A stretch of DNA of 64,000 nucleotides from a virus: the IMG/VR virus record IMGVR_UViG_3300033153_002115, positions 34,469 to 98,468 of that record. One strand, 5' to 3'. How positions within the stretch are numbered: position 1 is the first letter of the stretch; each line of letters opens with the position of its first letter. The translations under genes were made by a program, and so were the position numbers. Shown piece after piece: positions 4,126 through 34,572 of this stretch. The notes below the pieces were generated by a model, which did no database searches, had not been told where the DNA came from, and saw only the letters and a list, made by a program, of their open reading frames with translations.

Positions 4126-7100
4126 ATGCCACTATACGAAGATGGGGAAAAGATCAACTATAATAAAGATGATTATAACCCAGTAACTCAAAGAAATGAG
4201 CCTTTAAAGGCAGATCTACTTGCTGCTAAAGAAAAGGCCGCTACCAAAGTACCAGATTGGGTAGATAAAGGTACTATTGTTACAAGTGACTTAGACCCTA
4301 AGAAGAATGCTATTACATTAAGTGGTTATGGTAATCGAGGTATCGGTCCTGGTGATTTAGACGAGGACTATGATATGTATGGTGCCTTTGGTTCTTGGGA
4401 TGAGATAAAAGCTAATAGAATAGCATTACAATCAGATTGGGCGAAAGGAAGTCGTGCTGTTTTCGGCGGTTTAATGAAAGGTATAGGTACTGCGTTTAAA
4501 GACGTAGGGTTTATGTTAGATTGGAGAAGCTATGCCAAGGTTGGTGGTCTTATGAACATGGAAGAGACTGGAGCCATTAATGATATACTTAATAATGTCG
4601 GGGATTGGATACATGAATCTGTAGATGAATATGCTCCTATATACGAAAAGAACGATACTAAGTCTATTGTAGGACAACTTATGAAATGGGGTACTGTTAG
4701 TAGTATACTAGATAGTGCTGTTGGTTTTGCTTTACCTGGAGGTGTCGCATCTAAAGCCGGTACTTATGCTATGAAAGGTGTAGCTCTTAGTGGTAAACTT
4801 TTAAAATGGACTAATCGTCTAACAAATTTATCCAGAAGTGACGCTGTTGCTTTACGTTTGATGAGAGCAGAGAAAGCTTTTATAAATTTACAGAAAGCAG
4901 CCCCAAAAGCATCAAATATAATAAACACTGTAGGTCCTATGACTATGCAAGGTATAGGAGAAGGTATGTGGGAAGCTACTGATTCTTATAAAGAACATCT
5001 TGAATCAGTATCTGATTTAGTTTTAACAGGAGAGTTAAGTTTACAAGACGCAACTAATCAAGCTAATGATATAGCTGAAAACGTATTGCAACTAAACATG
5101 GCTAAAAGTTTCTTAAATCTACATATATTTAATAGTGTAGCTAGGAAATTTGGTAAAGGTCTTATAAGAAGTAAACCTACATTTGGAAAGAAGTTACAAA
5201 GTATGGTAAAGGAGATGCCTTTAGAAGCAATAGAAGAAGGCGGCCAAGAGATTTTCAAGAAAGAATCAGAATTTAGAGCTATGCGTGAGTACGAAAAAAC
5301 TCATAAAAATAGTCCTGTATTAGAAGAGTTACGAAAGAAAGGTAAGTATTCTGGTAATTTACCAAATGACTTCTTTGAAAGAATGGCTAATCTAACTAGC
5401 ACAAATCAAGTTTTATTAGCAGGTATTATAGGTGCTGTATCTGGGCCTATTCAACACGCACTTATGAGAGGTGTCGGCAGTAAAAAAAGATTTAAAGACC
5501 AAGTAGATGCGTATGAAAAGCAACAAGCTTTTATTAAAAAGCGTCAAGGGGTTTTGGACGACAGTGATGAGTTTAAAAAGTTTATTGAGCAGGTAAATAA
5601 AGATAATAAAAAAACAGGAGGAGCCACATTTAAAAAGGTAAAAGCAGAACAAGATCTAGCTAAGACTGTAGATAAAACAGCTCTAACAAATAAACTGATA
5701 GAGTTGGCTGATAATATGGATAACGACGATTTACGTGAGTTAGTGAAAAAGCAAGCTTATACAGCTCTTATACAAGAACACGTAGCTGCTGGTACTTATG
5801 AATATCTGGAAAAAGAAGCGGCTAAGTACTCTGGAACTAATCACCATATGAGTGAACTTGCAGGATATATGAAGCGCCTTAAACCTGTAATCAATAAGTC
5901 TAGGGGGTATTTAAATGAAGGTAATATATTTAATACAGCCATGGGTATAGAGTTAAGTAAAGACTTAAAGAAAGCATATACCGGGATGTTAGAGGAAATA
6001 CAGACAGATAAACTAGATAAGACTACAGAAACTCTTGAAGAGCATGACCATCAAATACAACTTATAAATACTATTAAAAAGATAGATGAAAATATACAGA
6101 CGGAACAGGAATACTTAAAGTCTATTACTTCTATGAAGCATCAACATCTATTATCAAGAGAGTTGATATATGATAATGAAAAGAAAAAAGCACTAGAGAG
6201 TCTTGTTAATGTAAAGACAAAGTCACAACTAAATAGAATAATAAGAGCATATCCAGAACTACGTGGGACTAAAGAATATACAAATCAAGTTAGAAATATA
6301 GAATCAGGTAAAGTTACAAAAGCACCTAAAAAGAAAATAACTGCAGCTACTAAGTCAGTAGAGCAACATGAGAAAGAAACTACACAAACTGTAGAAGAAA
6401 ACATACCTGGAACAAAAGAGGGTTTAACTCAACACGATGAAAACCAAGGACGAGTTATTAACGAAGAAGGTAAAAAGGTCAATAAAGCAGGAGTTCCTAT
6501 ATTAGCTATAGAAAATATAGAAGCTCATGTGACAGGAGCTGTTACAGATGTGTCAGATAAGATATCACCAGAAGAGGTAAATGATATTACAAAGATAGTG
6601 CATAGAAAATATGAAAGAGAAGCAGACACTTTTACAAGTCCAGAAGAACAGGTGACTTTTGTAGAAAACCTTGTGAATGATATAGTGCAAGGTTACGTAG
6701 AAGGAGAACGTACTGATATACAAGAAGAACAAGAAGAAGTAAATCAAGAGGTACAAAGACTTGAAAGACGTACTGAGTTATTTGGATCTACAGATACAAC
6801 ACAAAAACTTCCGGAAGAGTTGTTTGAAGAACATATAGCACATTTACAAGAAGTAAAAGTATTTAATGATGAAGTAGATAAGTTAAAGAAAAAAACTACG
6901 CTTACTGAAGAAGAAGATGCCTTTTTAATGCAGGTACCAGAAAATGCAGACGCTACTAGTAAAGAGTTAATCGCTGAAGTGAGAGCAATAGCTGAAGCAA
7001 TAGGTCATGAAAAACCTGATGGGTTTGTGAACTTTAAAGATTACGTGGAGTACCTTAAAGCTATTCTTGGGGAAGATTTTGTAAATGATAATTTCATAGA

Positions 7101-9471
7101 AGCTAAATTAGTGTACCGTACATTAACTGATCATAAGGGAGAACTTCCAGGTGTATACAATGATGTATCTGATAATGTAACAGATTATGGCCTTCCTGAA
7201 GATATGCCTACACCAGAAAAGAATGCTGTAGTATTTGGCTCGAAAAGTCCTGCAGGAACTACTTTTGAGGATGTAGTTGTTGAGATGTATAAAGCAGAAA
7301 AAACAGCAAAGAAATCCTACAATCGGGATCCTTCTGAATCTATAGCACATAAGTCTGAGAGTTCTCATATAGAAATAGATGCAGAAACTAAAGAAGCCTT
7401 CTTAGAAGAAGATACTAAAGCTGTAAAAGACTTAGCTGTATTTCTTAATCCTTATAAATATAACAGTAGGGAAGAAATAGCTTTTGAAATAGATCGTGAT
7501 TATAATTTAGGAGCTCAAGCTTCTTATATATTTAATGAAGATGGTAGTATAAAAGAAGATGGACCGGAATTTCAAGAATACGTTAGAGAAAATGGTTTTC
7601 CTGGGGATACTATTCCTGAAGATTTTGTTCCTATAAAGATAATAGGACCCGCAGGAGAAGATTTTAAGTGGGTGCATAAACCTGAATGGGCTGAAACATT
7701 AGCTGGGCAAGATACACAAGCTCAACGCGAAAAGATAAGAGCTAAACGTTTATCTATATTAAGTCAGATAAAGAAAAGTGAAAAGGGTCAGGCTGTAGGA
7801 AACTTAGAAGGTAAAATAATGTATTGGGATGATAAGAACAGTACTTATAGGGGATTCGTAATGAATGAGGTAAAGAGTCCAATACCTACTTCAGAAGCTA
7901 TCCGTGATAATATAAATATAGGTATTAAAAAGTCTGGTGGTTTAATAAACAGTAAAGTGAAAGAAAGTCAGATTATGAACTTAAACTATATTAAAAACTT
8001 ACCAACAGGTGTATCCTATGTATTATTACCTATAACTAAAGTTGATGGGGTTATGCAATACCATGCGGAACCTTTACGTACTACAAAGTTAAATGAAAAG
8101 TTAGGACGTACAGCACATGCTTTAATACAAGCTTATTTAACGCAAGATAAAAAAGGTGAATTAGCAAAAGAGTATAAAAATAAACGTAACTTAGATATAA
8201 CAACACCAACAGGTCTAGAGAAAGCTCTGGAAACCTTTATGTATGTGTATAAACCTAAAACAGATATAGAAGCTCACTCTCGTTATGCCAGAAATAAGCA
8301 TGGTGGTATAGGTTTATTATCTATAAATAAAGAAACAGGAGTTATATCCTTTGGTATTCAAGGACGTGAGTTAGTGGCTCCGGTAAGTGAAGAGGTTAGT
8401 GATGTTAGCGATAAAAATATAACCGGTTCACTTAAACTATTAGACGGATATTTTAAAACAGGTAAATTTATGTTTAACATAGATAAAACCAGAATGAACG
8501 GTAATAAAGCTTTTTATCATATAACTGTAGGTGAAGAAGGTAAAGTATCTACAACTACTGTTCTTTATAATGATTTAGTTAAAGATAATACAGAAACAAC
8601 TGTAGTGGGGCAACGTTTAGCAGATGGATCCTATACTTATACTCTTCAAAACATTGTTACGTTTTCTGTAAAAGATTCTAAAGAAGAGAGTTCGCGAATT
8701 TTAGAAGACGAAAATCCTATAGCAGCAGAGTGGGATGCTATTGAAAAGAAAGAAATAACTATAAAATACACTAATGGAAAGCCAGTACTAGATGGAACAG
8801 CTTTCAATGTATTCCAAAGAAAGATACATGAGAATATAGATAAAGACAGTGACTCTATATTGCAAATACTAAAAAGTGAAGGTATGATGGTATCTAAAAA
8901 TGAGGTACCTGTACTTAAATCTTATATTGCTATGCTTCGTAAGAATAAAATAGAACCTATGCGATTTGATGAGTTTGCTACTAATCGTGAAACTATAGAA
9001 AAAACTAGAAGTAAGAAACACAGTGAAGCATATAAAGAAAATTTAAAAAAAGCACAAGCAAAGTCGAAAGAAGATATAGAAAAAAGAAGTGTACAAAAAG
9101 TATTGACTGGTTTAGGAATAACAGATATAACTACAGAAATGACTGAGGATGAGATTGCAGAGACTACTGGTAGTGCAAAAGAAGCTAAAGTTATTAAAGA
9201 ATTGATAGATGCAAAAGATACTGTAGGTTTAAATAACAACATACCGCATATGCGTTTTTATAAAGAACGTAATCCTATAGCAGAAACAGCGTGGTATAAA
9301 GAATTATCTGAAGACGACAAGGAAGACGCATCTGAATTATATAAGTTAAATGAGAATACTAGCAATAAAATAGCTACTTTAGCAAAAGAAGGTTTAATAG
9401 AAGAGCAAGCAACAAACGCTTACTCTGAAGGTTTTACCACTATACAGGAACTACAGAAAAAATGTGAATAA
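4126..9471 (+). CDS. Giant virion cargo/ejection protein, 1781 aa
   Basis: Directly upstream of the virion RNAP; Gly-rich amphipathic N-terminal region, EAIEEGGQ motif, coiled-coil middle. Confidence 0.65.
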   Translation: MPLYEDGEKINYNKDDYNPVTQRNEPLKADLLAAKEKAATKVPDWVDKGTIVTSDLDPKKNAITLSGYGNRGIGPGDLDEDYDMYGAFGSWDEIKANRIALQSDWAKGSRAVFGGLMKGIGTAFKDVGFMLDWRSYAKVGGLMNMEETGAINDILNNVGDWIHESVDEYAPIYEKNDTKSIVGQLMKWGTVSSILDSAVGFALPGGVASKAGTYAMKGVALSGKLLKWTNRLTNLSRSDAVALRLMRAEKAFINLQKAAPKASNIINTVGPMTMQGIGEGMWEATDSYKEHLESVSDLVLTGELSLQDATNQANDIAENVLQLNMAKSFLNLHIFNSVARKFGKGLIRSKPTFGKKLQSMVKEMPLEAIEEGGQEIFKKESEFRAMREYEKTHKNSPVLEELRKKGKYSGNLPNDFFERMANLTSTNQVLLAGIIGAVSGPIQHALMRGVGSKKRFKDQVDAYEKQQAFIKKRQGVLDDSDEFKKFIEQVNKDNKKTGGATFKKVKAEQDLAKTVDKTALTNKLIELADNMDNDDLRELVKKQAYTALIQEHVAAGTYEYLEKEAAKYSGTNHHMSELAGYMKRLKPVINKSRGYLNEGNIFNTAMGIELSKDLKKAYTGMLEEIQTDKLDKTTETLEEHDHQIQLINTIKKIDENIQTEQEYLKSITSMKHQHLLSRELIYDNEKKKALESLVNVKTKSQLNRIIRAYPELRGTKEYTNQVRNIESGKVTKAPKKKITAATKSVEQHEKETTQTVEENIPGTKEGLTQHDENQGRVINEEGKKVNKAGVPILAIENIEAHVTGAVTDVSDKISPEEVNDITKIVHRKYEREADTFTSPEEQVTFVENLVNDIVQGYVEGERTDIQEEQEEVNQEVQRLERRTELFGSTDTTQKLPEELFEEHIAHLQEVKVFNDEVDKLKKKTTLTEEEDAFLMQVPENADATSKELIAEVRAIAEAIGHEKPDGFVNFKDYVEYLKAILGEDFVNDNFIEAKLVYRTLTDHKGELPGVYNDVSDNVTDYGLPEDMPTPEKNAVVFGSKSPAGTTFEDVVVEMYKAEKTAKKSYNRDPSESIAHKSESSHIEIDAETKEAFLEEDTKAVKDLAVFLNPYKYNSREEIAFEIDRDYNLGAQASYIFNEDGSIKEDGPEFQEYVRENGFPGDTIPEDFVPIKIIGPAGEDFKWVHKPEWAETLAGQDTQAQREKIRAKRLSILSQIKKSEKGQAVGNLEGKIMYWDDKNSTYRGFVMNEVKSPIPTSEAIRDNINIGIKKSGGLINSKVKESQIMNLNYIKNLPTGVSYVLLPITKVDGVMQYHAEPLRTTKLNEKLGRTAHALIQAYLTQDKKGELAKEYKNKRNLDITTPTGLEKALETFMYVYKPKTDIEAHSRYARNKHGGIGLLSINKETGVISFGIQGRELVAPVSEEVSDVSDKNITGSLKLLDGYFKTGKFMFNIDKTRMNGNKAFYHITVGEEGKVSTTTVLYNDLVKDNTETTVVGQRLADGSYTYTLQNIVTFSVKDSKEESSRILEDENPIAAEWDAIEKKEITIKYTNGKPVLDGTAFNVFQRKIHENIDKDSDSILQILKSEGMMVSKNEVPVLKSYIAMLRKNKIEPMRFDEFATNRETIEKTRSKKHSEAYKENLKKAQAKSKEDIEKRSVQKVLTGLGITDITTEMTEDEIAETTGSAKEAKVIKELIDAKDTVGLNNNIPHMRFYKERNPIAETAWYKELSEDDKEDASELYKLNENTSNKIATLAKEGLIEEQATNAYSEGFTTIQELQKKCE

Positions 9472-23700: not shown

Positions 23701-25538
23701 AAGAATTTACAAAGAAAACTTTATGGGATAATGCAGTAAACTATGCTGCAGGTAAAGATAATAAAAAAGAAATAACAGATCCAGTTACAGGTAAAACTGT
23801 AAAAGTACTGGATAAAGGAGTACAAACCTTAGAGTCTTTAATATCTAAGGAAATGAAAAACATACACGAAGTTAGGGAGTTAAATCCACAACAAATTAGA
23901 GAGTTATCTGCCGAAGATAGAGCTGAGATATACCGAGAAGCATCGGATATTGTAATGAAGAGTCATAGTGGTGATATATTTAAAGCCCTTAACTCATTAA
24001 ATCTTGCGGCTCTTTCTTATGGATATAAATCTGCTATTAAACCTGAAATAGATATGGCTCTCCACTACTTAGAGCAAATGGAAGCAGGTATATCGGATGA
24101 AGAGTTCAGTTTTGGTGATATAGATAGTAAAGATGTAGGCAATGTTAAAGACATGGTAGACTACTTTATCGACAGAGAATACTTCGATATAGGAAACCAG
24201 GATAAGTCGATGAAACTGCCGATTTCTGTCTATACATCGGATGAAAAGAGAAGAAGAAAGCAATTGTTAGAACAATTAGAAAGACTAGCTACAGATCAAA
24301 CTCTAAAAGGTAAAACTACAAAGAAACGTCTTGAAACAGAATTAAAAGAAATCGGGCGTAATGTAACAGTGAATTCTATCCTTAAGAGTTTAATGGATTT
24401 TATGAGAATATCTACAATGGGGTGGAATATACAGTCAGCTATTGCTAACTTTATGCAAGGTCAGATAGTAAATATAATACATGCCGCTGAAGGGAAATTG
24501 TTTACTTGGGAAACTTTAAAAGCAGCTTATTCTACAGTATTTACAGAAAAGTTCGATAATATTATAAAGAACTACGCTGTTCTTGGTGATATTATGTATG
24601 ATTTTGAACGTAAGAACCCATTCGAAAAGAAAAAAGGGGTTTTCGGTAAAATAAAAAGCGCTGTAATGCCTTACGCTGGTACAAAAATAGCCGAAAAATT
24701 GAATCAAGGTAACATAACTGTTGCTATGTTAATGCATATGCAAGTACAAGATAAAAATGGTAATGATATAAGCATTTGGGATGCTATAGATGATAAGGGG
24801 ACTTTATCAAAAGAATACACATTTAATGGACAGAAAGGAGACGCAGCTATAGCAGAAGTTATTATACCTATAAGAGATCAAATAAACTTAATTCATGGTG
24901 ACTATAATAACGCTAAATTACTTGGTAAAACTATTGTAGGTAAAGCAGCATCGATGTTTCATTTATGGTTTTTTGAACCATATCATGCGCATTTTGGAGC
25001 AAGAAAATATAATGCTATTTTAGGTAGAGAAACAAGAGGACGTGTATTATCGGCTATGGAATTAATCCCAAAATACGGATTAAGTTATAAAAAAATGCGA
25101 CAAGCTAGAGCAACCGAGAAAATAACTGAAGTTGATCTTAATAATATAAAAGTACTTTTTATGGAACTTAGTGCTATAGCTGTTACAGGGTTACTATCTC
25201 TATTAGCTAAAGCTACTTTATGTAATGATGAAGAAACCAAATGTGGTGGTGTAGGGACTACTTATCTAGTTAATACTCTTAATCGTATAGCAAGAGAAGT
25301 AAAAACATTTACAGATCCTACTGCATATTATGATCTTGTAACGAATCCTGTCGCTGTAGCTAGATACCTTAAAAGTATAGCTAGGATATTCCAGTATATG
25401 AGTGATGCGGCAGCAGGAGAGGATATGGATAATAAAGATGGGGATAATAAAATACTTATAACTTTAAGTAAAGAATTCCCTATATTAAGAAGATTAATTA
25501 TTGAACGTGATTTAATGGAAAATATTAGAAATTATTAA
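20790..25538 (+). CDS. Giant virion cargo protein, 1582 aa
   Basis: Last gene of the cargo block; N-terminal FIEKFGDW...NEP motif seen in large phage virion proteins; helical body; hydrophobic C-terminal segments. Confidence 0.65.
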   Translation: MQCLNINLPSIRKNLDDLTKLTGDKEVAYATLASNNGYTMKQTMTGKVSSLYNELEAISNIPEEAEILKMNVHSSEFIEKFGDWRNLKQGRLNTDNEPKLFTETGKYYYIGEKNKRISIKVNKPASFKKVAPLTSEETNNALKKQYTKDTEGPIKKGSFVSFKSKDGGITDAMVYKVNPNGSFNLFNTTTVTKDHIGILQNKTPRQLTKKGDYHTIGGAKGKPEVLVLYANKDRKEPLILNIKDKISVNKQSSNIQQNYIDAAVQYGLSKEPTIKPTETVETKPLHTDKDKVFVHAENVQEVDEVKAGIDEDISNGVKVFMVLPPQFANQHDMAISAYLTDMDWVYNVNEGVAYFAKPKAKIPTTESQKVPGPTQSFSKRTPGTITDSKGNLHKLGTLAANMIQFLQEKRQDALPYLRQGKQLVSKIERALLKAVPDATLFIYNKIPEVVLANRQLKERIATDSKDPRIRQVTGSDNIDLYNSLMYDLYTETVHRAMQLDRKVPGKGGSFNLRSDHIQAKLRNDIRSLEERKLNLQNTGAANKDIDAVTTEINDINAILEQDVEEYNLKTLKDIAKTDLAKARRILAKENISPDEFVRAKNILQNWIDVGNFEDTDKNIFLDESQAVNPEIQKDFKEIANEAESIKDTSLNNKGRNLITSKISSTLNKVFNFNDITKLKNKVNGWFKTVFSIAKVDNPTVAYIMKTINTAAKKAEVKAITESNHLAELYETLRQKGFDFELFWQKDKDGTVTGNLVSEYTSEYLKRLRNFKRGYGRLSDYKNDNVFIDVSRLAGASTLAIEKYVEELTPIIGRDKAISAVAEADMLFKRYMEIKDHYLMAEFGVENEEELEAGSEEASRMLQWKIQNSPAIRAAAIDKANTGTFNEIQGAAADRFLVTVPKKFDENGKPTELYDDTFTSITEDTDAAAFYKRAYEITKKAKEHFNTSGMTEYALGAIQNTILEEYQEHGIKEFTKKTLWDNAVNYAAGKDNKKEITDPVTGKTVKVLDKGVQTLESLISKEMKNIHEVRELNPQQIRELSAEDRAEIYREASDIVMKSHSGDIFKALNSLNLAALSYGYKSAIKPEIDMALHYLEQMEAGISDEEFSFGDIDSKDVGNVKDMVDYFIDREYFDIGNQDKSMKLPISVYTSDEKRRRKQLLEQLERLATDQTLKGKTTKKRLETELKEIGRNVTVNSILKSLMDFMRISTMGWNIQSAIANFMQGQIVNIIHAAEGKLFTWETLKAAYSTVFTEKFDNIIKNYAVLGDIMYDFERKNPFEKKKGVFGKIKSAVMPYAGTKIAEKLNQGNITVAMLMHMQVQDKNGNDISIWDAIDDKGTLSKEYTFNGQKGDAAIAEVIIPIRDQINLIHGDYNNAKLLGKTIVGKAASMFHLWFFEPYHAHFGARKYNAILGRETRGRVLSAMELIPKYGLSYKKMRQARATEKITEVDLNNIKVLFMELSAIAVTGLLSLLAKATLCNDEETKCGGVGTTYLVNTLNRIAREVKTFTDPTAYYDLVTNPVAVARYLKSIARIFQYMSDAAAGEDMDNKDGDNKILITLSKEFPILRRLIIERDLMENIRNY

Positions 25539-25539
25539 G

Positions 25540-25625
25540 AAGAGAGGATGGGATTCGAACCCACGGAGCTTTTACACCCTCTGATTTAGCAAACCAGTGC
25601 AATAGACCAACTCTGCCACCTCTCT
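25540..25625 (-). tRNA. tRNA-Ser(GCT)
   Basis: Anticodon arm CTGGT-TT GCT AA-ATCAG, long variable arm, TTCGAAT T-loop. Confidence 0.9.
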
Positions 25626-25630
25626 TTATG

Positions 25631-25701
25631 AGATGCCGGTCAGGATCGAACTGACGAACGGAGCTTTGCAGGCAACTACCTTACCACTCGGTTACAGCAT
25701 C
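25631..25701 (-). tRNA. tRNA-Cys(GCA), imperfect anticodon stem
   Basis: Loop CT GCA AA; acceptor GATGCTG/CGGCATC; two mismatches in the anticodon stem. Confidence 0.75.
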
Positions 25702-25704
25702 ATG

Positions 25705-25776
25705 CACAGGGAGTAGGATTCGAACCTACAAACTACGCTTTTGGAGAACGCTTGCCACACCTATAACTGCCCCTGT
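25705..25776 (-). tRNA. tRNA-Trp(CCA)
   Basis: Loop CT CCA AA; acceptor ACAGGGG/TCCCTGT, G73; atypical D-arm. Confidence 0.8.
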
Positions 25777-25780
25777 ATTG

Positions 25781-25860
25781 TGCCTCACGAAGAATCGAAC
25801 TTCCTAGTCATTAGACACCAGATTTACAGTCTGGTCCTGATCCCACTCAGCAGACTCGGC
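25781..25860 (-). tRNA. tRNA-Tyr(GTA), irregular acceptor stem
   Basis: CCAGA-CT GTA AA-TCTGG, long variable arm; acceptor stem only partly paired. Confidence 0.7.
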
Positions 25861-25865
25861 ATTAG

Positions 25866-25950
25866 AGGAAAGTGTGGGATTCCAACCCACAAGACTTTGA
25901 CATCCTACTGGTTTTCAAGACCAGGCCCTCGTGCACCACGGACACTTTCC
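25866..25950 (-). tRNA. tRNA-Ser(TGA)
   Basis: CTGGT-CT TGA AA-ACCAG; acceptor GGAAAGT/ACTTTCC; long variable arm. Confidence 0.85.
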
Positions 25951-25955
25951 TTATG

Positions 25956-26028
25956 TGGAATCAGATAGACTCGAACTACCGTCTCAAGATCTTCAATCTC
26001 GTGCTATTGCCTCCTCAGCTATGATTCC
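25956..26028 (-). tRNA. tRNA-Phe(GAA)
   Basis: CGAGA-TT GAA GA-TCTTG; acceptor GGAATCA/TGATTCC. Confidence 0.88.
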
Positions 26029-26033
26029 ATTAG

Positions 26034-26108
26034 TGCGGAAAGAGAGACTCGAACTCTCAGAACTCTGGAGCCTAAATCCAGCGACTTTACCTATTTGCCC
26101 ACTCCCGC
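26034..26108 (-). tRNA. tRNA-Leu(TAG), short variable region
   Basis: CTGGA-TT TAG GC-TCCAG; acceptor GCGGGAG/TTTCCGC; only 6 nt between anticodon and T arms. Confidence 0.85.
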
Positions 26109-26114
26109 ATTTTG

Positions 26115-26201
26115 TGCACCTGGTGAGAGTCGAACTCACAAGACCATCACTGATCACTGGGGCTTAAACCCAGCGCGTTTCTCCAGTTTCGCCACAGACG
26201 C
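26115..26201 (-). tRNA. tRNA-Leu(TAA)
   Basis: CTGGG-TT TAA GC-CCCAG; long variable arm; A73. Confidence 0.9.
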
Positions 26202-26204
26202 ATA

Positions 26205-26241
26205 TAAACCAGAAAGACCCTACTCGTTAAAGTAAGGTCTT
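26205..26241 (-). terminator. Attenuator terminator of tRNA operon B
   Basis: Hairpin AAGACCTTACT-TTAACG-AGTAGGGTCTT followed by TCTGGTTT, just before tRNA-Leu(TAA); its 5' arm (CCTTAC) can alternatively pair with GTAAGG in the leader. Confidence 0.75.
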
Positions 26242-26272
26242 AGTACTATATTGTATTATTTATATAGCTATC

Positions 26273-26332
26273 CTAATCCCTTACCGAAGTAAGCAGCGAC
26301 CAGAAACTAAATAAATAACATGTTGTTTTCAT
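26273..26332 (-). CDS. Leader peptide B, MKTTCYLFSFWSLLTSVRD (19 aa), putative attenuator of the Leu/Phe/Ser/Tyr/Trp/Cys tRNA operon
   Basis: Translated by hand. Codons TGT TAT TTA TTT AGT TTC TGG TCG CTG CTT match the 8 downstream tRNAs; the 3' end overlaps the antiterminator arm. Confidence 0.85.
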   Translation of the reverse strand: MKTTCYLFSFWSLLTSVRD

Positions 26333-26442
26333 AAAATGTTATATTAAAACCGGTTAAATTAATAACCGGCCTTTACAATTTAAAGTGTCAATCAGGTTTT
26401 GCACCCCTGTTTTACATGACAAACTCGTTGTTTTTGCGGTAA

Positions 26443-26474
26443 CAAATATACACCTTATATATTATACAACCAAA
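26443..26474 (-). promoter_or_regulatory. Bacteroidota sigma70 promoter for tRNA operon B
   Basis: TTTG-N20-TATATTTG, matching the -33/-7 consensus. Confidence 0.75.
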
Positions 26475-26480
26475 TAAAAG

Positions 26481-26553
26481 TTACCCCGGCTGGATTCGAA
26501 CCAGAATTACAAGGCTCAAAACCTTGTGTGCTTGCCGTTTACACTACAGGGCA
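26481..26553 (-). tRNA. tRNA-Gln(TTG)
   Basis: CAAGG-TT TTG AG-CCTTG; U1-A72. Confidence 0.88.
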
Positions 26554-26558
26554 ATATG

Positions 26559-26631
26559 AGAAGGTGAAAGGAATCGAACCTTCAACCTCCGAATTCGTAG
26601 TCCGGGGCTCATCCATTTGAGCTACACCTCC
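26559..26631 (-). tRNA. tRNA-Arg(ACG)
   Basis: CCGGA-CT ACG AA-TTCGG. Confidence 0.88.
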
Positions 26632-26636
26632 ATTAG

Positions 26637-26709
26637 TGATGCCTCTGGGTTTCGAACCCAGGCTCTTCGCATTAAAAGTGCGAGGCTTTACCAACTAAGC
26701 TAAGACACC
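26637..26709 (-). tRNA. tRNA-Lys(TTT)
   Basis: TCGCA-CT TTT AA-TGCGA. Confidence 0.9.
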
Positions 26710-26826
26710 TGATAAATAGAATATCTATACTCCTTTATCGGTGCGGCCAGTTCTCCGTACATCTCTACGACCTCCAAGCCTCTTGAATTAACACTATACA
26801 TAACATTTAATTTTAATTAATACTAG

Positions 26827-26901
26827 TACTGCCAACGAGGCTCGAACTCGCATCTTCCAGGATGAAAACCTGACGTCCTACTCCATTTAGACTACAGCAG
26901 C
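26827..26901 (-). tRNA. tRNA-Glu(TTC)
   Basis: TCAGG-TT TTC AT-CCTGG. Confidence 0.88.
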
Positions 26902-26912
26902 ATATAATTTAG

Positions 26913-26984
26913 AACCCCTACCGAGAGTCGAACTCAGGACTTGGGTTTAGAAGACCCACGCTTTTCCAGTTAAGCTATAAGGGT
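26913..26984 (-). tRNA. tRNA-Arg(TCT)
   Basis: TGGGT-CT TCT AA-ACCCA. Confidence 0.85.
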
Positions 26985-26989
26985 ACCTG

Positions 26990-27063
26990 TAGGGATGGCA
27001 GGAATTGAACCGACGCTCTCCCGGATATCAGCCGGGCACTTTAACCAACTAAGCTACACCCCC
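26990..27063 (-). tRNA. tRNA-Ile(GAT)
   Basis: CCCGG-CT GAT AT-CCGGG. Confidence 0.88.
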
Positions 27064-27068
27064 ATATG

Positions 27069-27144
27069 TTGACCTGGGCGGATTCGAACCGACGACTTCT
27101 TCCTTGTAAGGGAAGCACTCTGAACCAGACTGAGTTACAGATCA
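27069..27144 (-). tRNA. tRNA-Val(TAC)
   Basis: CTTCC-CT TAC AA-GGAAG. Confidence 0.88.
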
Positions 27145-27149
27145 ATTTG

Positions 27150-27223
27150 CGGACTGGTAAAGATTCGAACTTTACATACTTTCTGATATTCATCAGATTT
27201 TCTTTCCCGTTAATTTACAGCCC
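27150..27223 (-). pseudogene. tRNA-like element with 6-nt anticodon loop and no clear D-arm
   Basis: Acceptor-like GGGCTG/CAGTCC, T-arm GTAAAG-TTCGAAT-CTTTAC, arm TCTGA-TGAATA-TCAGA. Confidence 0.6.
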
Positions 27224-27230
27224 AATATAG

Positions 27231-27306
27231 CGGTCCCGGAGGGTATCGAACCCTCGTTTTTCTAGCGTGACAGGCTAGATCCCCGGCCATTGGGGCTCAC
27301 GAAACC
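27231..27306 (-). tRNA. tRNA-Asp(GTC)
   Basis: CTAGC-CT GTC AC-GCTAG; G73. Confidence 0.88.
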
Positions 27307-27310
27307 ATTG

Positions 27311-27384
27311 TGGGCAATGCTGGATTTGAACCAACGACCTTCTCCTTATGAGGGAGCTGCTCTACCTGACTAAGCTAAAAGCCC
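27311..27384 (-). tRNA. tRNA with CAT anticodon, probably Ile2 (lysidine, reads ATA)
   Basis: Loop CT CAT AA; 5' GGGCTTTTAGCTTAG resembles Ile2 rather than Met; leader A contains an ATA codon. Confidence 0.7.
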
Positions 27385-27389
27385 AAAAG

Positions 27390-27464
27390 TTGCGGGAGTG
27401 AGAATCGAACTCACGTTAATCTTGCTTATGAGACAAGGCTGGAACCCCTCCAGACCACCCCGCA
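27390..27464 (-). tRNA. tRNA-Met(CAT)
   Basis: Loop CT CAT AA; fMet-like acceptor TGCGGGG/TCCCGCA but lacking the three anticodon-stem G-C pairs. Confidence 0.8.
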
Positions 27465-27566
27465 ATATAAGATCAGGTGTCGCACCTAAAGACTTACTTA
27501 AATCCAGCTCGGAACTGCAATCTATTTATCTTAGCGATACAAGGGAATCGAACCCTTCACCTAATG

Positions 27567-27639
27567 AGCCTCCGACAGGAATCGAACCTGTTATCCTCTG
27601 ATTACAAATCAGTAGCTTCGCCAGCAAAGCTTAAGAGGC
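27567..27639 (-). tRNA. tRNA-Thr(TGT)
   Basis: CTGA-TT TGT AA-TCAG; acceptor GCC/GGC. Confidence 0.85.
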
Positions 27640-27643
27640 ATAA

Positions 27644-27683
27644 TTGGTCGGTGTTTTTATACAGGTACCAACCAAGAGCCTGT
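27644..27683 (-). ncRNA. Putative 40-nt H-type pseudoknot RNA in a tRNA spacer
   Basis: S1 ACAGG/CCTGT, L1 CTC, S2 TTGGTTGGT/ACCGACCAA, L2 A, A-rich L3 ATAAAAAC. Confidence 0.5.
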
Positions 27684-27688
27684 CTTCG

Positions 27689-27762
27689 AGCGAGTAGACG
27701 GGATCAAACCGACTCTAATCCTGGTTGGAAGCCAGGTGCACCATCATTTATGCGTTACTCGC
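27689..27762 (-). tRNA. tRNA-Gly(TCC)
   Basis: CCTGG-CT TCC AA-CCAGG; acceptor GCGAGTA/TACTCGC, U73. Confidence 0.88.
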
Positions 27763-27767
27763 TTATG

Positions 27768-27839
27768 CGGAATGAGATGGATTCGAACCAACGTACATCT
27801 GCTTAACAGGCAGGCGCTAAGCCGCTTAGCTATCATTCC
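27768..27839 (-). tRNA. tRNA-Asn(GTT)
   Basis: CTGC-CT GTT AA-GCAG; G73. Confidence 0.88.
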
Positions 27840-27843
27840 TTAG

Positions 27844-27915
27844 TGGAGCCGAAGTGAATCGAACACTCGTAACTCTGCTTGCAAGGCAAAGCTTCTAACC
27901 AACAAGACCAACCCC
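27844..27915 (-). tRNA. tRNA-Ala(TGC)
   Basis: Loop CT TGC AA; G3:U70 identity pair present. Confidence 0.85.
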
Positions 27916-27919
27916 ATTG

Positions 27920-27993
27920 GGTGTATGATGAGACTCGAACTCACTTCAACTGGAACCACAATCCAGCCCCTCGGCCACTTCGGGATCATACAC
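27920..27993 (-). tRNA. tRNA-His(GTG)
   Basis: CTGGA-TT GTG GT-TCCAG; C73; position -1 encoded as T, not G. Confidence 0.85.
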
Positions 27994-27995
27994 AG

Positions 27996-28069
27996 TAGGG
28001 TGAGTCAGATTCGAACTGACGGACCGGTGATTCCAAATCACCGTAGTATAGCCTCTGCAATACCACCCT
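27996..28069 (-). tRNA. tRNA-Pro(TGG)
   Basis: GGTGA-TT TGG AA-TCACC; acceptor AGGGTGG/TCACCCT. Confidence 0.8.
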
Positions 28070-28073
28070 ATAT

Positions 28074-28111
28074 AAAACAAAAAAGACCTTCCTGTTTAGT
28101 CGGAAAGTCTT
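28074..28111 (-). terminator. Attenuator terminator of tRNA operon A
   Basis: Hairpin AAGACTTTCC-GACTAAACA-GGAAGGTCTT plus TTTTGTTTT immediately before the first tRNA; its 5' arm can alternatively pair with GGAGGGCTCTTGCT in the leader. Confidence 0.85.
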
Positions 28112-28141
28112 ACTTGTGTTATTTTATATTATACGATAATA

Positions 28142-28219
28142 TCACATAGCAAGAGCCCTCCCACGAATTGTATCCGCCTTCGGCTGCTCGACTGTATGTA
28201 TATTATTCATTGTTCTCAT
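28142..28219 (-). CDS. Leader peptide A, MRTMNNIHTVEQPKADTIRGRALAM (25 aa), putative attenuator of the 16-tRNA operon
   Basis: Translated by hand. Contains all 14 amino acids served by the downstream tRNAs and no C/Y/F/W/S; the 3' end overlaps the antiterminator arm. Confidence 0.85.
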   Translation of the reverse strand: MRTMNNIHTVEQPKADTIRGRALAM

Positions 28220-28223
28220 GTTG

Positions 28224-28231
28224 CAAATATA
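28224..28231 (-). promoter_or_regulatory. Bacteroidota sigma70 -7 element for tRNA operon A
   Basis: TATATTTG-CAAC-ATG: the leader start codon sits about at the expected +1 (near-leaderless mRNA); -33 element not canonical. Confidence 0.7.
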
Positions 28232-28317
28232 TATAAAAGATTCGATTTTAAAGTCCTTTAGAATGAATTATTTTAAAATTTCTTACCTATGATACTGTTA
28301 GATTGATTCTCAAAGGG

Positions 28318-31020
28318 TTAGATATGCCCACCTGTAGACCATTTAGTATATAATGCCTGACTTGATGCTAATGAGAAATTTCCTGGTAAAGTAGTCGGCT
28401 GAATACTTAACCATAACTCATCTCCAAAATCACCATCTCTTCTTGCTATCATTTCTGACACATCTAATAACGCTTGGAAAGTAATCTTTTCATCTAACAC
28501 GGCAGCTTTACTTATAACTATACTATTTGAATTGGTTATAGGAGCACCAGGTTCTGAATAAGTAATAGGATCACCATCTTTTAACCATCCCCAACGTACA
28601 GTCCATTCATAAGTTCCTGTAGAATTTGCATGCCCACTCCACATTAATTTAATAGGACTTGAAGTATCAAGATCAAAAGGCAGAAATCCACTAACACCTA
28701 ATATATCACCTGTAGCTGTAAATTTGTTATTTGTTAATCCTGCTCCTATATCTTCACTTATATATAAAGTCTGACTCTGCATACTACCTTCAAAAGGTTT
28801 ACCAGAAGCTAAGTTCAAACCTAATTGTGCTTCAGGTCTAGCTGTACCAAAGAACTCTATCCAACCATCACCATTTACCTCAAGTCTGTTTGAATGCACT
28901 TTCCATTGTTCGAATACAGGAGCTGTAGTAATAGTTGCTGTAATTCTATATCGTATCCAATAATAATCTACACCTAATACAGGTGTTATAGGATCATTCT
29001 TGGCCCACCCATCATTTTGTAGTACACTATCATATCTAATTTGAGTAGAGCCTACAGCCTGGAAAATGTTTTTAGCTTTTGGGTAATACTTTCCACCAGA
29101 ATCTGCTTCCATTACATTAAGTTCAACCCAAACACTTCCATTCCAGTATTCTGTAACAATATTTCCTGTACCAAAAACTGCAGCTAAAGTAACTTTTGTT
29201 TTAATACCATAATGATGTAGAACATCTACAGTATCAGCACGCATACTTGCTATATATATAGCAGAATCGGCGTCTAAATTAGGGAACGTAAAAGTAGATC
29301 CACTAGCAGATTTAGCCGCAGCAGAAACATCCACAAAAGAAGCACCATCATAAGTATACACTACCATACCGGCAGTATAACTATCTCCTTCACCAAACAC
29401 ACTTTCTGCTGGTATCCCTGGACTTCCTACGTGTAACTCGCCAAGAATATTTAACCCTTCATCATCTTCACTTACATCCAGTATATAAACATAAAAACCA
29501 GCTCCAGGTATGACGTAGCTGTTATTGATCTCAGAAAATCCGTTACCTGTAACAAGAGAATTAGGATTTAACACATTAAAATTAAGCCCAGTACATTGGG
29601 TTATAGTTGTAGAAAATAGACTTACTTTTACATTAGTTCCTACATTGTCAACCCTAAACCCGTTGTTTTGACAGAACATTATACGTAAAGCATCAAATCT
29701 AACGTCGGTGTTATCCCCTGAAATAACCATAGCATCGTAAACATACCCTATAGAGGCAGTACCACCTAGAAGTAAAGCACCATCTAATACCTGTAATACA
29801 GTTGTAATAGTAGGACTTATTGTTATTAGATTATGAAGACTTACTTTTGTATTAGGGCCGGATATGATAATACCATTAGTTACAATTACAGTTGATCTGA
29901 ATGTTATATTATCTAAATCCGCATTTCCACTTTGAATGTTTATAGCATTTACAGTAGTTGTTAAAGCAGGGTTATTTACAGTTAAAGCTGATATTTCAAA
30001 AACAGCGCTTGCGTGATTTAAATAAAACCCATTAGCAGCATCTCTTAATACACAATTATTCACTGTAGTGACACCAGGACTTTCGTGTTTCAATATATAA
30101 GCAGTACCTGTATTACCACTGAACACTATACCAGTTATGTATGCAAATACACCGCCGGTAAACATATCATTAGTAGTAACTAAAGGTTTGAATACTATAG
30201 CTCTTCCACCAATAGCAGTGATATTAGTAAAGTCTTTTAGAGCAATAGGCCCTAAACTATTATCTATAATATATTCACCAGGAGCAACTTCTATACTATA
30301 CCTATTTGCAGAAGTGTTATCTGTAATAGAAGCTATAGCCAAAGCTATGTCTGTAAAGTCCCCTCCAGATTTAGCTACAGTAATAACATTACTTAAAGTA
30401 CCGCCTGCAGGGAAGGTTATAGATTGATCGATTATATAATCAACATTAAGTTCATCAAAATGCTTTAATGGGACTAATATCCAATAGATAAAAGCTGCTG
30501 GATTAGTTGCCAAAGTTCCTGATAGTGTATAGTTACCACTACTATCCAGAGTGTTAACAACAACACCAGTTGCAGCGTAATCCGGCTTACCATCCACAAT
30601 ATTGCTGACCACAGCATCTTCACCATTCGCCCACTGATCGAAGAGGATTGTACTACCCGTAGGTGGGCTGATTTGGCCGCTAGTGCTTGTACCATTGATT
30701 TGCTCATAATATAGTATTTTAATTTGTGTATCTTCTATAGCAGTCATTCTACCTTCCAATGACGTAACATCACCGGCATATCCACCCTTAAAAAAGTCCT
30801 TAGTAGCGACAAGTAGTTCTGCTAGATCAGTATAATAGGAATCATCTTCTTTCTGGAGATATACAATCTCTGTAGGACTCATAGTTGACTCATGAGTATC
30901 TGAAGACTCTATAGCTACTTTAAGTCCATTATCATAGATTCTAAGTATATATCTACCAGCAGGAAGAATATCATTACCTACATGAAATATATTATTAAGT
31001 GCTTCTTTATAGAAATACAT
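28318..31020 (-). CDS. Tail spike/fiber with pectin-lyase-like beta-helix
   Basis: ITVAKSGGDFTDIALAI...IEVAPGEY beta-helix cap followed by Asn/Ile/Val-rich coils; N-terminal about 80 aa shared with 33483..34151. Confidence 0.75.
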   Translation of the reverse strand: MYFYKEALNNIFHVGNDILPAGRYILRIYDNGLKVAIESSDTHESTMSPTEIVYLQKEDDSYYTDLAELLVATKDFFKGGYAGDVTSLEGRMTAIEDTQIKILYYEQINGTSTSGQISPPTGSTILFDQWANGEDAVVSNIVDGKPDYAATGVVVNTLDSSGNYTLSGTLATNPAAFIYWILVPLKHFDELNVDYIIDQSITFPAGGTLSNVITVAKSGGDFTDIALAIASITDNTSANRYSIEVAPGEYIIDNSLGPIALKDFTNITAIGGRAIVFKPLVTTNDMFTGGVFAYITGIVFSGNTGTAYILKHESPGVTTVNNCVLRDAANGFYLNHASAVFEISALTVNNPALTTTVNAINIQSGNADLDNITFRSTVIVTNGIIISGPNTKVSLHNLITISPTITTVLQVLDGALLLGGTASIGYVYDAMVISGDNTDVRFDALRIMFCQNNGFRVDNVGTNVKVSLFSTTITQCTGLNFNVLNPNSLVTGNGFSEINNSYVIPGAGFYVYILDVSEDDEGLNILGELHVGSPGIPAESVFGEGDSYTAGMVVYTYDGASFVDVSAAAKSASGSTFTFPNLDADSAIYIASMRADTVDVLHHYGIKTKVTLAAVFGTGNIVTEYWNGSVWVELNVMEADSGGKYYPKAKNIFQAVGSTQIRYDSVLQNDGWAKNDPITPVLGVDYYWIRYRITATITTAPVFEQWKVHSNRLEVNGDGWIEFFGTARPEAQLGLNLASGKPFEGSMQSQTLYISEDIGAGLTNNKFTATGDILGVSGFLPFDLDTSSPIKLMWSGHANSTGTYEWTVRWGWLKDGDPITYSEPGAPITNSNSIVISKAAVLDEKITFQALLDVSEMIARRDGDFGDELWLSIQPTTLPGNFSLASSQALYTKWSTGGHI

Positions 31021-34200: not shown

Positions 34201-34572
34201 TTATACTTTTATCCGTGTAAATGAAAAAGTAGTAGTTTGATAGGTTATATATAGCCTATCTTCTATTATAGAATATGTGCATTTGTTATTAAATAACTCT
34301 AATAATTGAGGAACTGTAATAGTTACCTGTTTCCAGGTTATCACATTACCAATTACTTCATAACTACCTTCAAACATCGCTACAGCAGTATTACCGCTAA
34401 AAATAGACTCTTTAAAGTTAATTTCAATATCCGGGATAGATAAAGATTTCCAAGCACCAAGTAAACGGTTTACTGGTCGACCTGGAGGGTTGTATGGAAG
34501 GCCAGTTTTTTTCTCTTTACATTTAAATAGTTGTTTAACCCAAGCAATAAATTGTATGAATAAAGTTTTCAT
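34201..34572 (-). CDS. META/HslJ-like beta-barrel protein
   Basis: LLGAW...FSGNT....FEGSYEVIGNVITW...T pattern; the usual Cys pair is absent. Confidence 0.45.
   Translation of the reverse strand: MKTLFIQFIAWVKQLFKCKEKKTGLPYNPPGRPVNRLLGAWKSLSIPDIEINFKESIFSGNTAVAMFEGSYEVIGNVITWKQVTITVPQLLELFNNKCTYSIIEDRLYITYQTTTFSFTRIKV

Follow-up and report, generated by a model that had tools for sequence, protein, structure and literature searches.

Leader A is a 25-codon open reading frame (ORF) that lies directly ahead of a block of 16 tRNA genes on the minus strand of the virus record IMGVR_UViG_3300033153_002115, from which we analysed a stretch of 64,000 nucleotides (nt) (positions 34,469 to 98,468 of the record; hereafter the window, to whose first letter the coordinates refer). 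We propose that Leader A, together with the hairpins that follow it, is a ribosome-dependent transcription attenuator of the trp/ilv type that places these phage tRNA genes under feedback control by the tRNA pool, and we assign this reading a probability of roughly 80%. An earlier reading of the region, made from the letters alone (the sequence-only reading), had likewise proposed a leader-peptide attenuator; the proposal is supported here by competitive helices, by a complementary sister element (Leader B) in front of a second tRNA block, and by leaders in Cellulophaga phages whose amino acids are partitioned differently.

Every tRNA gene of the window lies in a single minus-strand array (28069-25539), which a gap of 278 nt divides into block A with 16 and block B with 8 tRNAs (Table 1). 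ARAGORN called 22 genes in the array, and Rfam added tRNA-Gly(TCC) (27762-27689) and tRNA-Tyr(GTA) (about 25860-25782); block A thus comprises 15 ARAGORN tRNAs within 28069-26480 and the Rfam-derived tRNA-Gly. Its gene order is Pro, His, Ala, Asn, Gly, Thr, Met, Ile2(CAT), Asp, Val, Ile-GAT, Arg-TCT, Glu, Lys, Arg-ACG and Gln, and block B holds Leu-TAA, Leu-TAG, Phe, Ser-TGA, Tyr, Trp, Cys and Ser-GCT. On the transcribed strand, a promoter box is followed by four bases, the 25-codon ORF, a hairpin with a U-run and tRNA-Pro. Leader A is the only same-strand ATG ORF in this 248-nt leader region, which begins where the upstream gene ends (28318).

The sequence-only reading had claimed that the small ORF contains a codon for each of the 16 downstream tRNAs, and with the ARAGORN and Rfam gene calls we indeed found a cognate codon for 16 of the 16. 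The roster spans 14 amino acids, with one to three codons for each tRNA. Two assignments carry a caveat: reading of GTC requires four-way wobble by tRNA-Val(UAC), and coverage of ATA depends on one of the two CAT tRNAs being a lysidine-type tRNA-Ile2. The latter assumption is supported by the likeness of the CAT tRNA at 27384-27310 to phage tRNAs annotated as Ile or ileZ; the same search of a phage collection related the other CAT tRNA (27464-27389) to phage tRNAs annotated as Met, and a BLAST comparison of both with E. coli genomes gave no match. Codons 6-16, to which attention had been drawn as a row of 11 different residues, do specify 11 different residues, and Cys, Tyr, Phe, Trp and Ser are absent from the ORF, whose single Leu codon (CTT) is codon 23; as stand-alone evidence we rejected the residue run, which is unremarkable on its own.

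The coverage itself was compared with random 25-codon ORFs modelled either on base composition or on the phage's own codon usage. Such ORFs cover on average 10.4-10.8 of the 16 tRNAs and all 16 with P ~1e-4, and coverage of all 16 with at most one foreign codon has P ~1e-5. That residues 1-22 are all drawn from block A amino acids has P = 1.5e-4. Among the 525 ATG ORFs of 15-45 codons in the genome, Leader A alone holds all 14 block A amino acids, and it is also the only one with even 13 of them within 30 codons. A segment log-odds score for the match between leader and block gave no separation (11.0 for Leader A and up to 11.3 for the best chance matches in control phages); because a block of 14 amino acids yields little log-odds per residue, we used the coverage statistics instead.

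Compared with shuffled sequences, the fold of Leader A has a z-score of -4.6. Four segments of the transcript (Table 1) are predicted to form three mutually exclusive helices, with energies of -24.0 (1:2), -21.2 (2:3) and -17.9 kcal/mol (3:4); the last of these is the terminator, whose core accounts for -12.8 kcal/mol and whose extended form reaches the full value. It was missed by a consensus terminator scan, as its loop (9 nt) exceeds 8 nt. The U-run stops 5 nt short of tRNA-Pro and leaves no room for a promoter behind it, so that block A would be expressed only by reading through the hairpin. The pairing of 28162-28148 with 28114-28102, which had been put forward as the antiterminator that sequesters the 5' arm of the terminator, is predicted by ViennaRNA when segment 1 is masked or segment 4 has not yet been made. 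An Rfam cmscan of 25300-28420 with E up to 1 returned neither a leader family (His, Thr, Trp, Leu, Phe) nor a T-box; it yielded only tRNA-clan matches and, on the opposite strand, chance matches to plastid untranslated regions.

To represent the ribosome, we masked in ViennaRNA, at every codon, a footprint with its rear edge 15 nt upstream of the A site and its front edge at +9, +12 or +15, and folded both the transcript before the 3' arm of the terminator exists and the full leader. With a stall at codons 1 up to 15-17 the antiterminator is intact, and from codons 17-19 up to and including the stop codon it is disrupted; the outcome is the same with all three footprints. Even at equilibrium the antiterminator wins with the ribosome parked at codons 8-15, and in the full-length leader the terminator probability is 0.0-0.4 with a stall at codons 9-15. 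Scanned codon by codon in this way, the antiterminator is a competitive structure. Segment 1 contains the control codons 4-13, and the stall-sensitive window extends over about codons 4-17.

Codons 10-15 (28175-28192, minus strand; GTC, GAG, CAG, CCG, AAG, GCG), which make up the G+C-rich part of segment 1, are rare synonymous choices with shares of 5-28% in this AT-rich phage. They probably serve the segment-1 stem rather than decoding speed; this structural reason is the likelier one because the leaders of the Cellulophaga phage phi17:2 (see below) are without the same bias. A preference for rare codons ending in G was rejected as a general trait of such leaders, as those of phi17:2 use mixed codons.

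These results bear on the possibility that a chance ORF, itself untranslated, lies beside an ordinary terminator that ends the transcript of the upstream structural gene, the tRNAs being supplied by leaky readthrough. There is no terminator between the upstream gene and the leader, so that the hairpin is the first one after that gene, and the -33 promoter box is imperfect; both observations would suit an ordinary terminator. However, codon coverage of this kind would arise by chance only at ~1e-4 to 1e-5, the ORF has no second of its kind in the genome, segment 2 is predicted to pair with both of its neighbouring segments, and Leader B as well as unrelated phages repeat the design. We therefore regard an ordinary terminator next to a fortuitous ORF as very unlikely.

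According to the attenuation model, host RNA polymerase would start at or near the A of the ATG, and a ribosome would translate the 25-codon ORF behind the polymerase. If all codons are decoded promptly, the ribosome would reach the end of the ORF and cover segment 2, the 3:4 terminator would form, and transcription would stop 5 nt before tRNA-Pro. If the ORF is left untranslated, helix 1:2 would form first, again with termination as the outcome. A ribosome stalled at about codons 4-17 for want of an aminoacyl-tRNA would instead cover segment 1, permit pairing of segments 2 and 3, and allow readthrough into the tRNA genes. Because the leader codons are those read by the downstream-encoded tRNAs, the newly made tRNAs would relieve the stall and shut the gate, and the element would act as a homeostat that uses negative feedback to hold decoding in the infected cell at capacity. 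We infer the translation of the ORF, the start of transcription and the alternation between termination and readthrough; scarcity of individual tRNAs may stem from the AT-rich codon usage of the phage relative to the host tRNA pool, from host shut-off or from tRNA-cleaving defences.

The putative start of the leader transcript follows from the probable host. A Shine-Dalgarno core precedes just 1 of 57 phage genes (versus 8% in random 14-mers), and the gene starts are A-rich at -13 to -11 and at -3, a pattern poor in Shine-Dalgarno sequences and rich in A that has been described for Flavobacterium (PMC6847099). Since the gene starts lack Shine-Dalgarno sequences and share the Flavobacterium-like A pattern, the host is, as judged from the sequence, very probably a member of the Bacteroidota. 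The box TATATTTG matches the sigma-A consensus of this phylum, and the ATG of Leader A begins 4 nt after it, a distance from which the sequence-only reading had deduced almost leaderless translation. In Flavobacterium psychrophilum, TAnnTTTG, the sigma-A box, lies at -12 to -5, 5.5% of the mRNAs are leaderless, and leader-peptide attenuation has been reported for amino-acid operons (PMC9723704). A near-leaderless start fits this arrangement: from the position of the box and the published -12 to -5 spacing, +1 probably coincides with the first base of the start codon (28219) or lies no more than two bases away. A slightly later start would still leave an in-frame ATG at codon 4 and nearly the full roster. 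The same 4-nt spacing between box and ATG is found in two of the phi17:2 leaders. Upstream of the -7 box, at a distance of 17 nt, a -33 box matches the consensus at 3 of 4 positions (TTTA; 28252-28249). Readthrough from the upstream gene is possible as an additional source of the leader transcript, and the ATG carries an A at -3.

A sister element, Leader B, lies 1.9 kb downstream of Leader A, in front of block B. Codons 5-14 of its ORF specify Cys, Tyr, Leu(TTA), Phe, Ser(AGT), Phe, Trp, Ser(TCG), Leu(CTG) and Leu and cover 8 of the 8 block B tRNAs, including both Leu and both Ser isoacceptors. It folds with a z-score of -5.7 and is predicted to form 1:2, 2:3 and 3:4 helices as in Leader A; masked folding places its stall-sensitive window at codons 3-13, coincident with the roster codons. 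From the stop codon to the first tRNA there are 72-73 nt in both leaders. The two leaders partition the amino acids as the two tRNA blocks do (Fisher test of leader versus block, P = 7e-5 for whole ORFs and 2.7e-5 for the stall-sensitive windows).

The sequence between tRNA-Gln and Leader B holds several further elements. A full-consensus Bacteroidota promoter (TTTG, 20 nt, TATATTTG; 26472-26443, minus strand) sits directly 3' of tRNA-Gln and, since this is well before the ATG, Leader B is not leaderless. A strong hairpin with a U-run (about 26371-26343, minus strand) follows about 70 nt past this promoter, still ahead of the start codon of Leader B, and a minimal ATG-TAA ORF (26416-26411, minus strand) is situated between promoter and Leader B. 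As to its composition, block B is made up of exactly those tRNAs that decode UNN codons (Phe, Leu-TAA, Ser-TGA, Tyr, Cys, Trp) together with the remaining Leu and Ser isoacceptors, and it houses all tRNAs of the array with a long variable arm. A similar set (Tyr, Ser, Ser, Trp, Phe, Cys, with the addition of Asn) forms one block in phi17:2. The make-up of block B may hint at a vulnerability, or a class of modification, that its tRNAs have in common.

Phage records with DNA similarity to the genome, a similarity that is due to the tRNAs alone, include those of the Cellulophaga phages phi17:2 and phi4:1. The tRNA array of these phages is composed of three blocks; ahead of each, a promoter-like box leads into a small ORF, which is followed by a hairpin and its U-run. 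Within codons 4-17 of the three leaders, 11, 14 and 13 of the 14 codons match the leader's own block, and 0-3 match the other blocks. The partition differs from that of blocks A and B: Leu shares a block with Pro, Glu, Gln, His and Arg, and the block that holds Asn also has Tyr, Ser, Trp, Phe and Cys. The phi17:2 leaders share 98-99% identity with their phi4:1 counterparts, with one synonymous change between them, and hence carry no covariation information. The annotated coding sequence (CDS) 077 of phi17:2, a hypothetical protein, overlaps leader 2; CDS 078 (4730-4831) of the same phage corresponds to tRNA-Ser(TGA), and a tRNA-Lys is left unannotated in phi17:2_18.

A further analogue was found at the metagenomic locus L030 (Ga0180431_10008704, 8445-8655), where 13 consecutive Gln and Ser codons and a hairpin precede tRNAs for Gln, Gln and Ser. 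This locus belongs to a phage fragment with 48% G+C, and an ORF resembling a peptide-chain-release factor lies downstream. In these non-orthologous analogues (phi17:2, phi4:1 and L030), the leader codons follow the respective tRNA block. No comparable ORF was present at 40 tRNA blocks in two jumbo phages or at the tRNAs of a distant polymerase relative; the tRNAs of those control phages are mostly single genes after protein genes. Two further loci are weak candidates with scores within the chance range: in L098 (496-579), a small Pro-Leu-Pro-Leu ORF lies 33 nt before tRNAs for Leu and Pro, and in L127 a Phe-Gln-Phe ORF lies between TATATTTG and a hairpin with a U-run, ahead of tRNAs for Phe and Gln.

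The comparison across leaders also speaks to the idea that the 25-residue peptide acts in trans, or that the hairpins are signals for processing or stability of the tRNA precursor. Leader peptides that function in trans do exist, as is described for peTrpL (PMC7298713), and the hairpin lies right against the first tRNA, at whose 5' end RNase P must cut. Yet the peptides are unrelated between leaders and between phages, the feature that they share being the codon set of the downstream block, and no homolog of the peptide pattern was detected in two large collections; the G+C-rich stem followed by a U-run is, moreover, that of an intrinsic terminator. Both variants of this idea seem to us highly improbable.

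The search for relatives of the phage gave few further leads. The closest relative, with a DNA polymerase 82% identical to that of the phage, is represented by a 98,725-bp contig. A DNA polymerase relative at 49% identity (88.5 kb) has no tRNAs, and those at 36% and 31% carry a few scattered tRNAs without leaders. Searches with the 900-amino-acid protein encoded upstream of Leader A, as a single sequence and as a 13-sequence alignment, returned 86 loci, among which L030 alone had an adjacent tRNA array; scans of the full records of relatives of this protein detected tRNAs in unrelated jumbo phages only.

Several observations weigh against our interpretation of Leader A. No orthologs of the leader were found when viral and metagenome contig collections were searched with a degenerate back-translation of codons 5-16, and the helices are a thermodynamic prediction from one sequence. 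In the ribosome-free truncated transcript, the 2:3 form is about as stable as 1:2, and termination by default would depend on the order of folding, with 1:2 forming first as in classical attenuators. The -33 box is, as described, imperfect. Classical leaders have repeated control codons, whereas each tRNA is represented in Leader A by one to three, and a single codon would be a weak signal unless the tRNA is severely depleted. The sequence-only reading had itself warned that a ribosome stalled at the last control codons, Ile18, Arg19 and Gly20, may already cover the antiterminator arm, and the masked folds bear this out: a ribosome stalled there covers segment 2, and the antiterminator is lost. 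These three codons are therefore probably not sensed, as far as the folding model goes; Ile-GAT, Arg-ACG and Gly are represented at codons 18-20 only, and the sole codons for Arg-TCT are numbers 2 and 21. On the simple model, the leader would thus monitor 12-13 of the 16 tRNAs.

The incomplete coverage of the stall-sensitive window, with only 12-13 of the 16 roster codons inside it, would also be expected of a generic sensor of translation stress, in which a functional ORF and its hairpins report any slowing of the ribosome, be it through starvation, ribosome-targeting toxins or host shut-off. The use of 14 amino acids with mostly one codon each brings to mind the upstream ORFs of topAI (PMC12121999) and whiB7 (PMC10274678), which are presented in these sources as broad stall sensors. 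A sensor of this type would not, however, require that the division of the 20 amino acids between Leaders A and B be exactly that of the two tRNA blocks. Nor would it require that the phi17:2 leaders track a different split, or that the L030 leader consist almost purely of Gln and Ser codons ahead of Gln and Ser tRNAs. We consider a generic sensor unlikely, and the attenuator that tests the codons of its own tRNA block remains the reading that we prefer.

In its proposed design, Leader A resembles the enterobacterial attenuators: a short ORF whose translation would be monitored has its control codons in segment 1, the 1:2, 2:3 and 3:4 helices exclude one another, a terminator precedes the genes, and stalling would cause antitermination. 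Leaders that respond to more than one amino acid are known from these bacteria, namely those of ilvGMEDA (Ile/Leu/Val) and thr (Thr/Ile), next to trpL, hisL, leuL and pheL. However, the genes behind Leader A specify tRNAs and not enzymes; the sensed product would be the tRNA itself, and the loop would close directly on decoding. The enterobacterial leaders contain runs of codons for one to three amino acids, whereas Leader A samples 14 (for 16 tRNAs), mostly once each. It further differs in that its mRNA is probably leaderless, in that it is phage-borne and set in the Bacteroidota, and in that it matches no Rfam leader family.

The pheM leader of the E. coli pheST operon for phenylalanyl-tRNA synthetase is an attenuator that responds to the supply of charged tRNA. 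Like Leader A in our model, it controls a part of the translation apparatus, but its target is a synthetase, it monitors one amino acid through repeated Phe codons, and it is cellular. T-box riboswitches are, like the switch proposed for Leader A, leader switches between terminator and antiterminator that respond to the status of tRNA and control translation-related genes; in contrast to Leader A, they need no ORF or ribosome, since the specifier codon and the T-box sequence themselves bind the uncharged tRNA.

The long tRNA operon (trn) of Anabaena PCC 7120 is cryptic, induced by translational stress and repressed by TrcR (PMC8421152, PMC10272220). It shares with our model of the block behind Leader A the character of an accessory set of tRNA genes that stays silent until translation falters; its control, however, is exerted by a protein repressor, and a leader peptide, an attenuator or a terminator is mentioned in neither of the two papers. 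Leaderless short ORFs of mycobacteria with polycysteine stretches are presented as Cys-responsive attenuators (bioRxiv 10.1101/834739) and, as regulatory short ORFs at the very 5' end of a transcript, are comparable with the arrangement proposed for Leader A, but they sense a single amino acid, have protein-coding targets and belong to another phylum. Full-text literature searches yielded no paper connecting tRNA genes, whether of phages or of cells, with leader peptides or attenuators; the stress-induced Anabaena operon is the nearest case in print. Attenuation itself is well known; new here would be attenuation of the trp/ilv type on tRNA genes and a roster with one codon per tRNA.

Phage tRNAs are currently discussed as aids to codon usage and as replacements for tRNAs destroyed by host defences. 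To our knowledge, the regulation of phage tRNA genes, and the reason why their arrays are split into blocks, are largely unknown. If the attenuation model is correct, the phage gauges decoding capacity one codon at a time and provides tRNAs only as required, and trp-type attenuation would extend to RNAs as the sensed ligand, to a leaderless mRNA and to a phylum without Shine-Dalgarno initiation. More tentatively, phages of the Bacteroidota and some others may carry an on-demand tRNA kit, in which the loss of one host tRNA induces the block that replaces it, as an inducible counter-defence. Each block could then stand behind a roster leader that tests every codon family served by it, the loss being due to anticodon nucleases, to other tRNA-targeting defences or to shut-off induced by the phage. 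If so, these would be the first tRNA genes to be controlled through a test that the ribosome performs on the very tRNAs they encode. A rule for the annotation of small ORFs within tRNA arrays would follow, as the case of the phi17:2 leader listed as a hypothetical protein illustrates, and the element could be used as a compact reporter of tRNA depletion.

Table 1. Coordinates of the tRNA blocks, of the leader elements in the window and of the leaders in phage phi17:2 (the latter in the numbering of its own record).
Feature	Position	Strand	Remarks
-7 promoter box TATATTTG	28224..28231	(-)	Bacteroidota sigma-A consensus TAnnTTTG
Leader A ORF	28142..28219	(-)	25 codons + TGA; ATG start
Segment 1 (predicted 5' arm of the 1:2 anti-antiterminator)	28183..28210	(-)	Codons 4-13; minimum free energy fold
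Segment 2	28133..28164	(-)	Codons 19-25, stop codon + 9 nt; partner is segment 1 or 3
Segment 3 (predicted 3' arm of the antiterminator, 5' arm of the terminator)	28099..28122	(-)	Truncated and ribosome-masked folds
Intrinsic terminator (predicted)	28072..28113	(-)	10-bp G+C-rich core with 9-nt loop (28110-28084), U-run 28083-28072
tRNA block A	26480..28069	(-)	16 genes; ARAGORN + Rfam
Leader B element	26204..26332	(-)	19-codon ORF 26332-26273 + terminator 26241-26214
tRNA block B	25539..26201	(-)	8 genes; ARAGORN + Rfam
phi17:2_18 (KT962247) leaders	1865-1933, 2825-2908, 4384-4482		Cultured phage; counterpart in phi4:1

Within block A, two degenerate tRNA-like elements (27145-27229 and about 27465-27565, minus strand) were recovered by ARAGORN at relaxed settings only. 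Both have good T arms, six-base anticodon loops and two-base 'anticodons', and they may be pseudogenes or non-canonical RNAs. The 116-nt spacer between tRNA-Glu and tRNA-Lys (26710-26825, minus strand) gave no tRNA or Rfam match.

The source record is a complete virus genome of 98,468 bp with terminal repeats and a G+C content of 34.7%. The 900-amino-acid protein encoded by the gene upstream of Leader A is without a PHROG family. The genes of the phage are arranged in two arms of opposed orientation, one of which encodes DNA polymerase A, a helicase, a primase and a ligase and has the tRNA array at its end, and the other of which includes giant ORFs of 1781 and 2723 amino acids.

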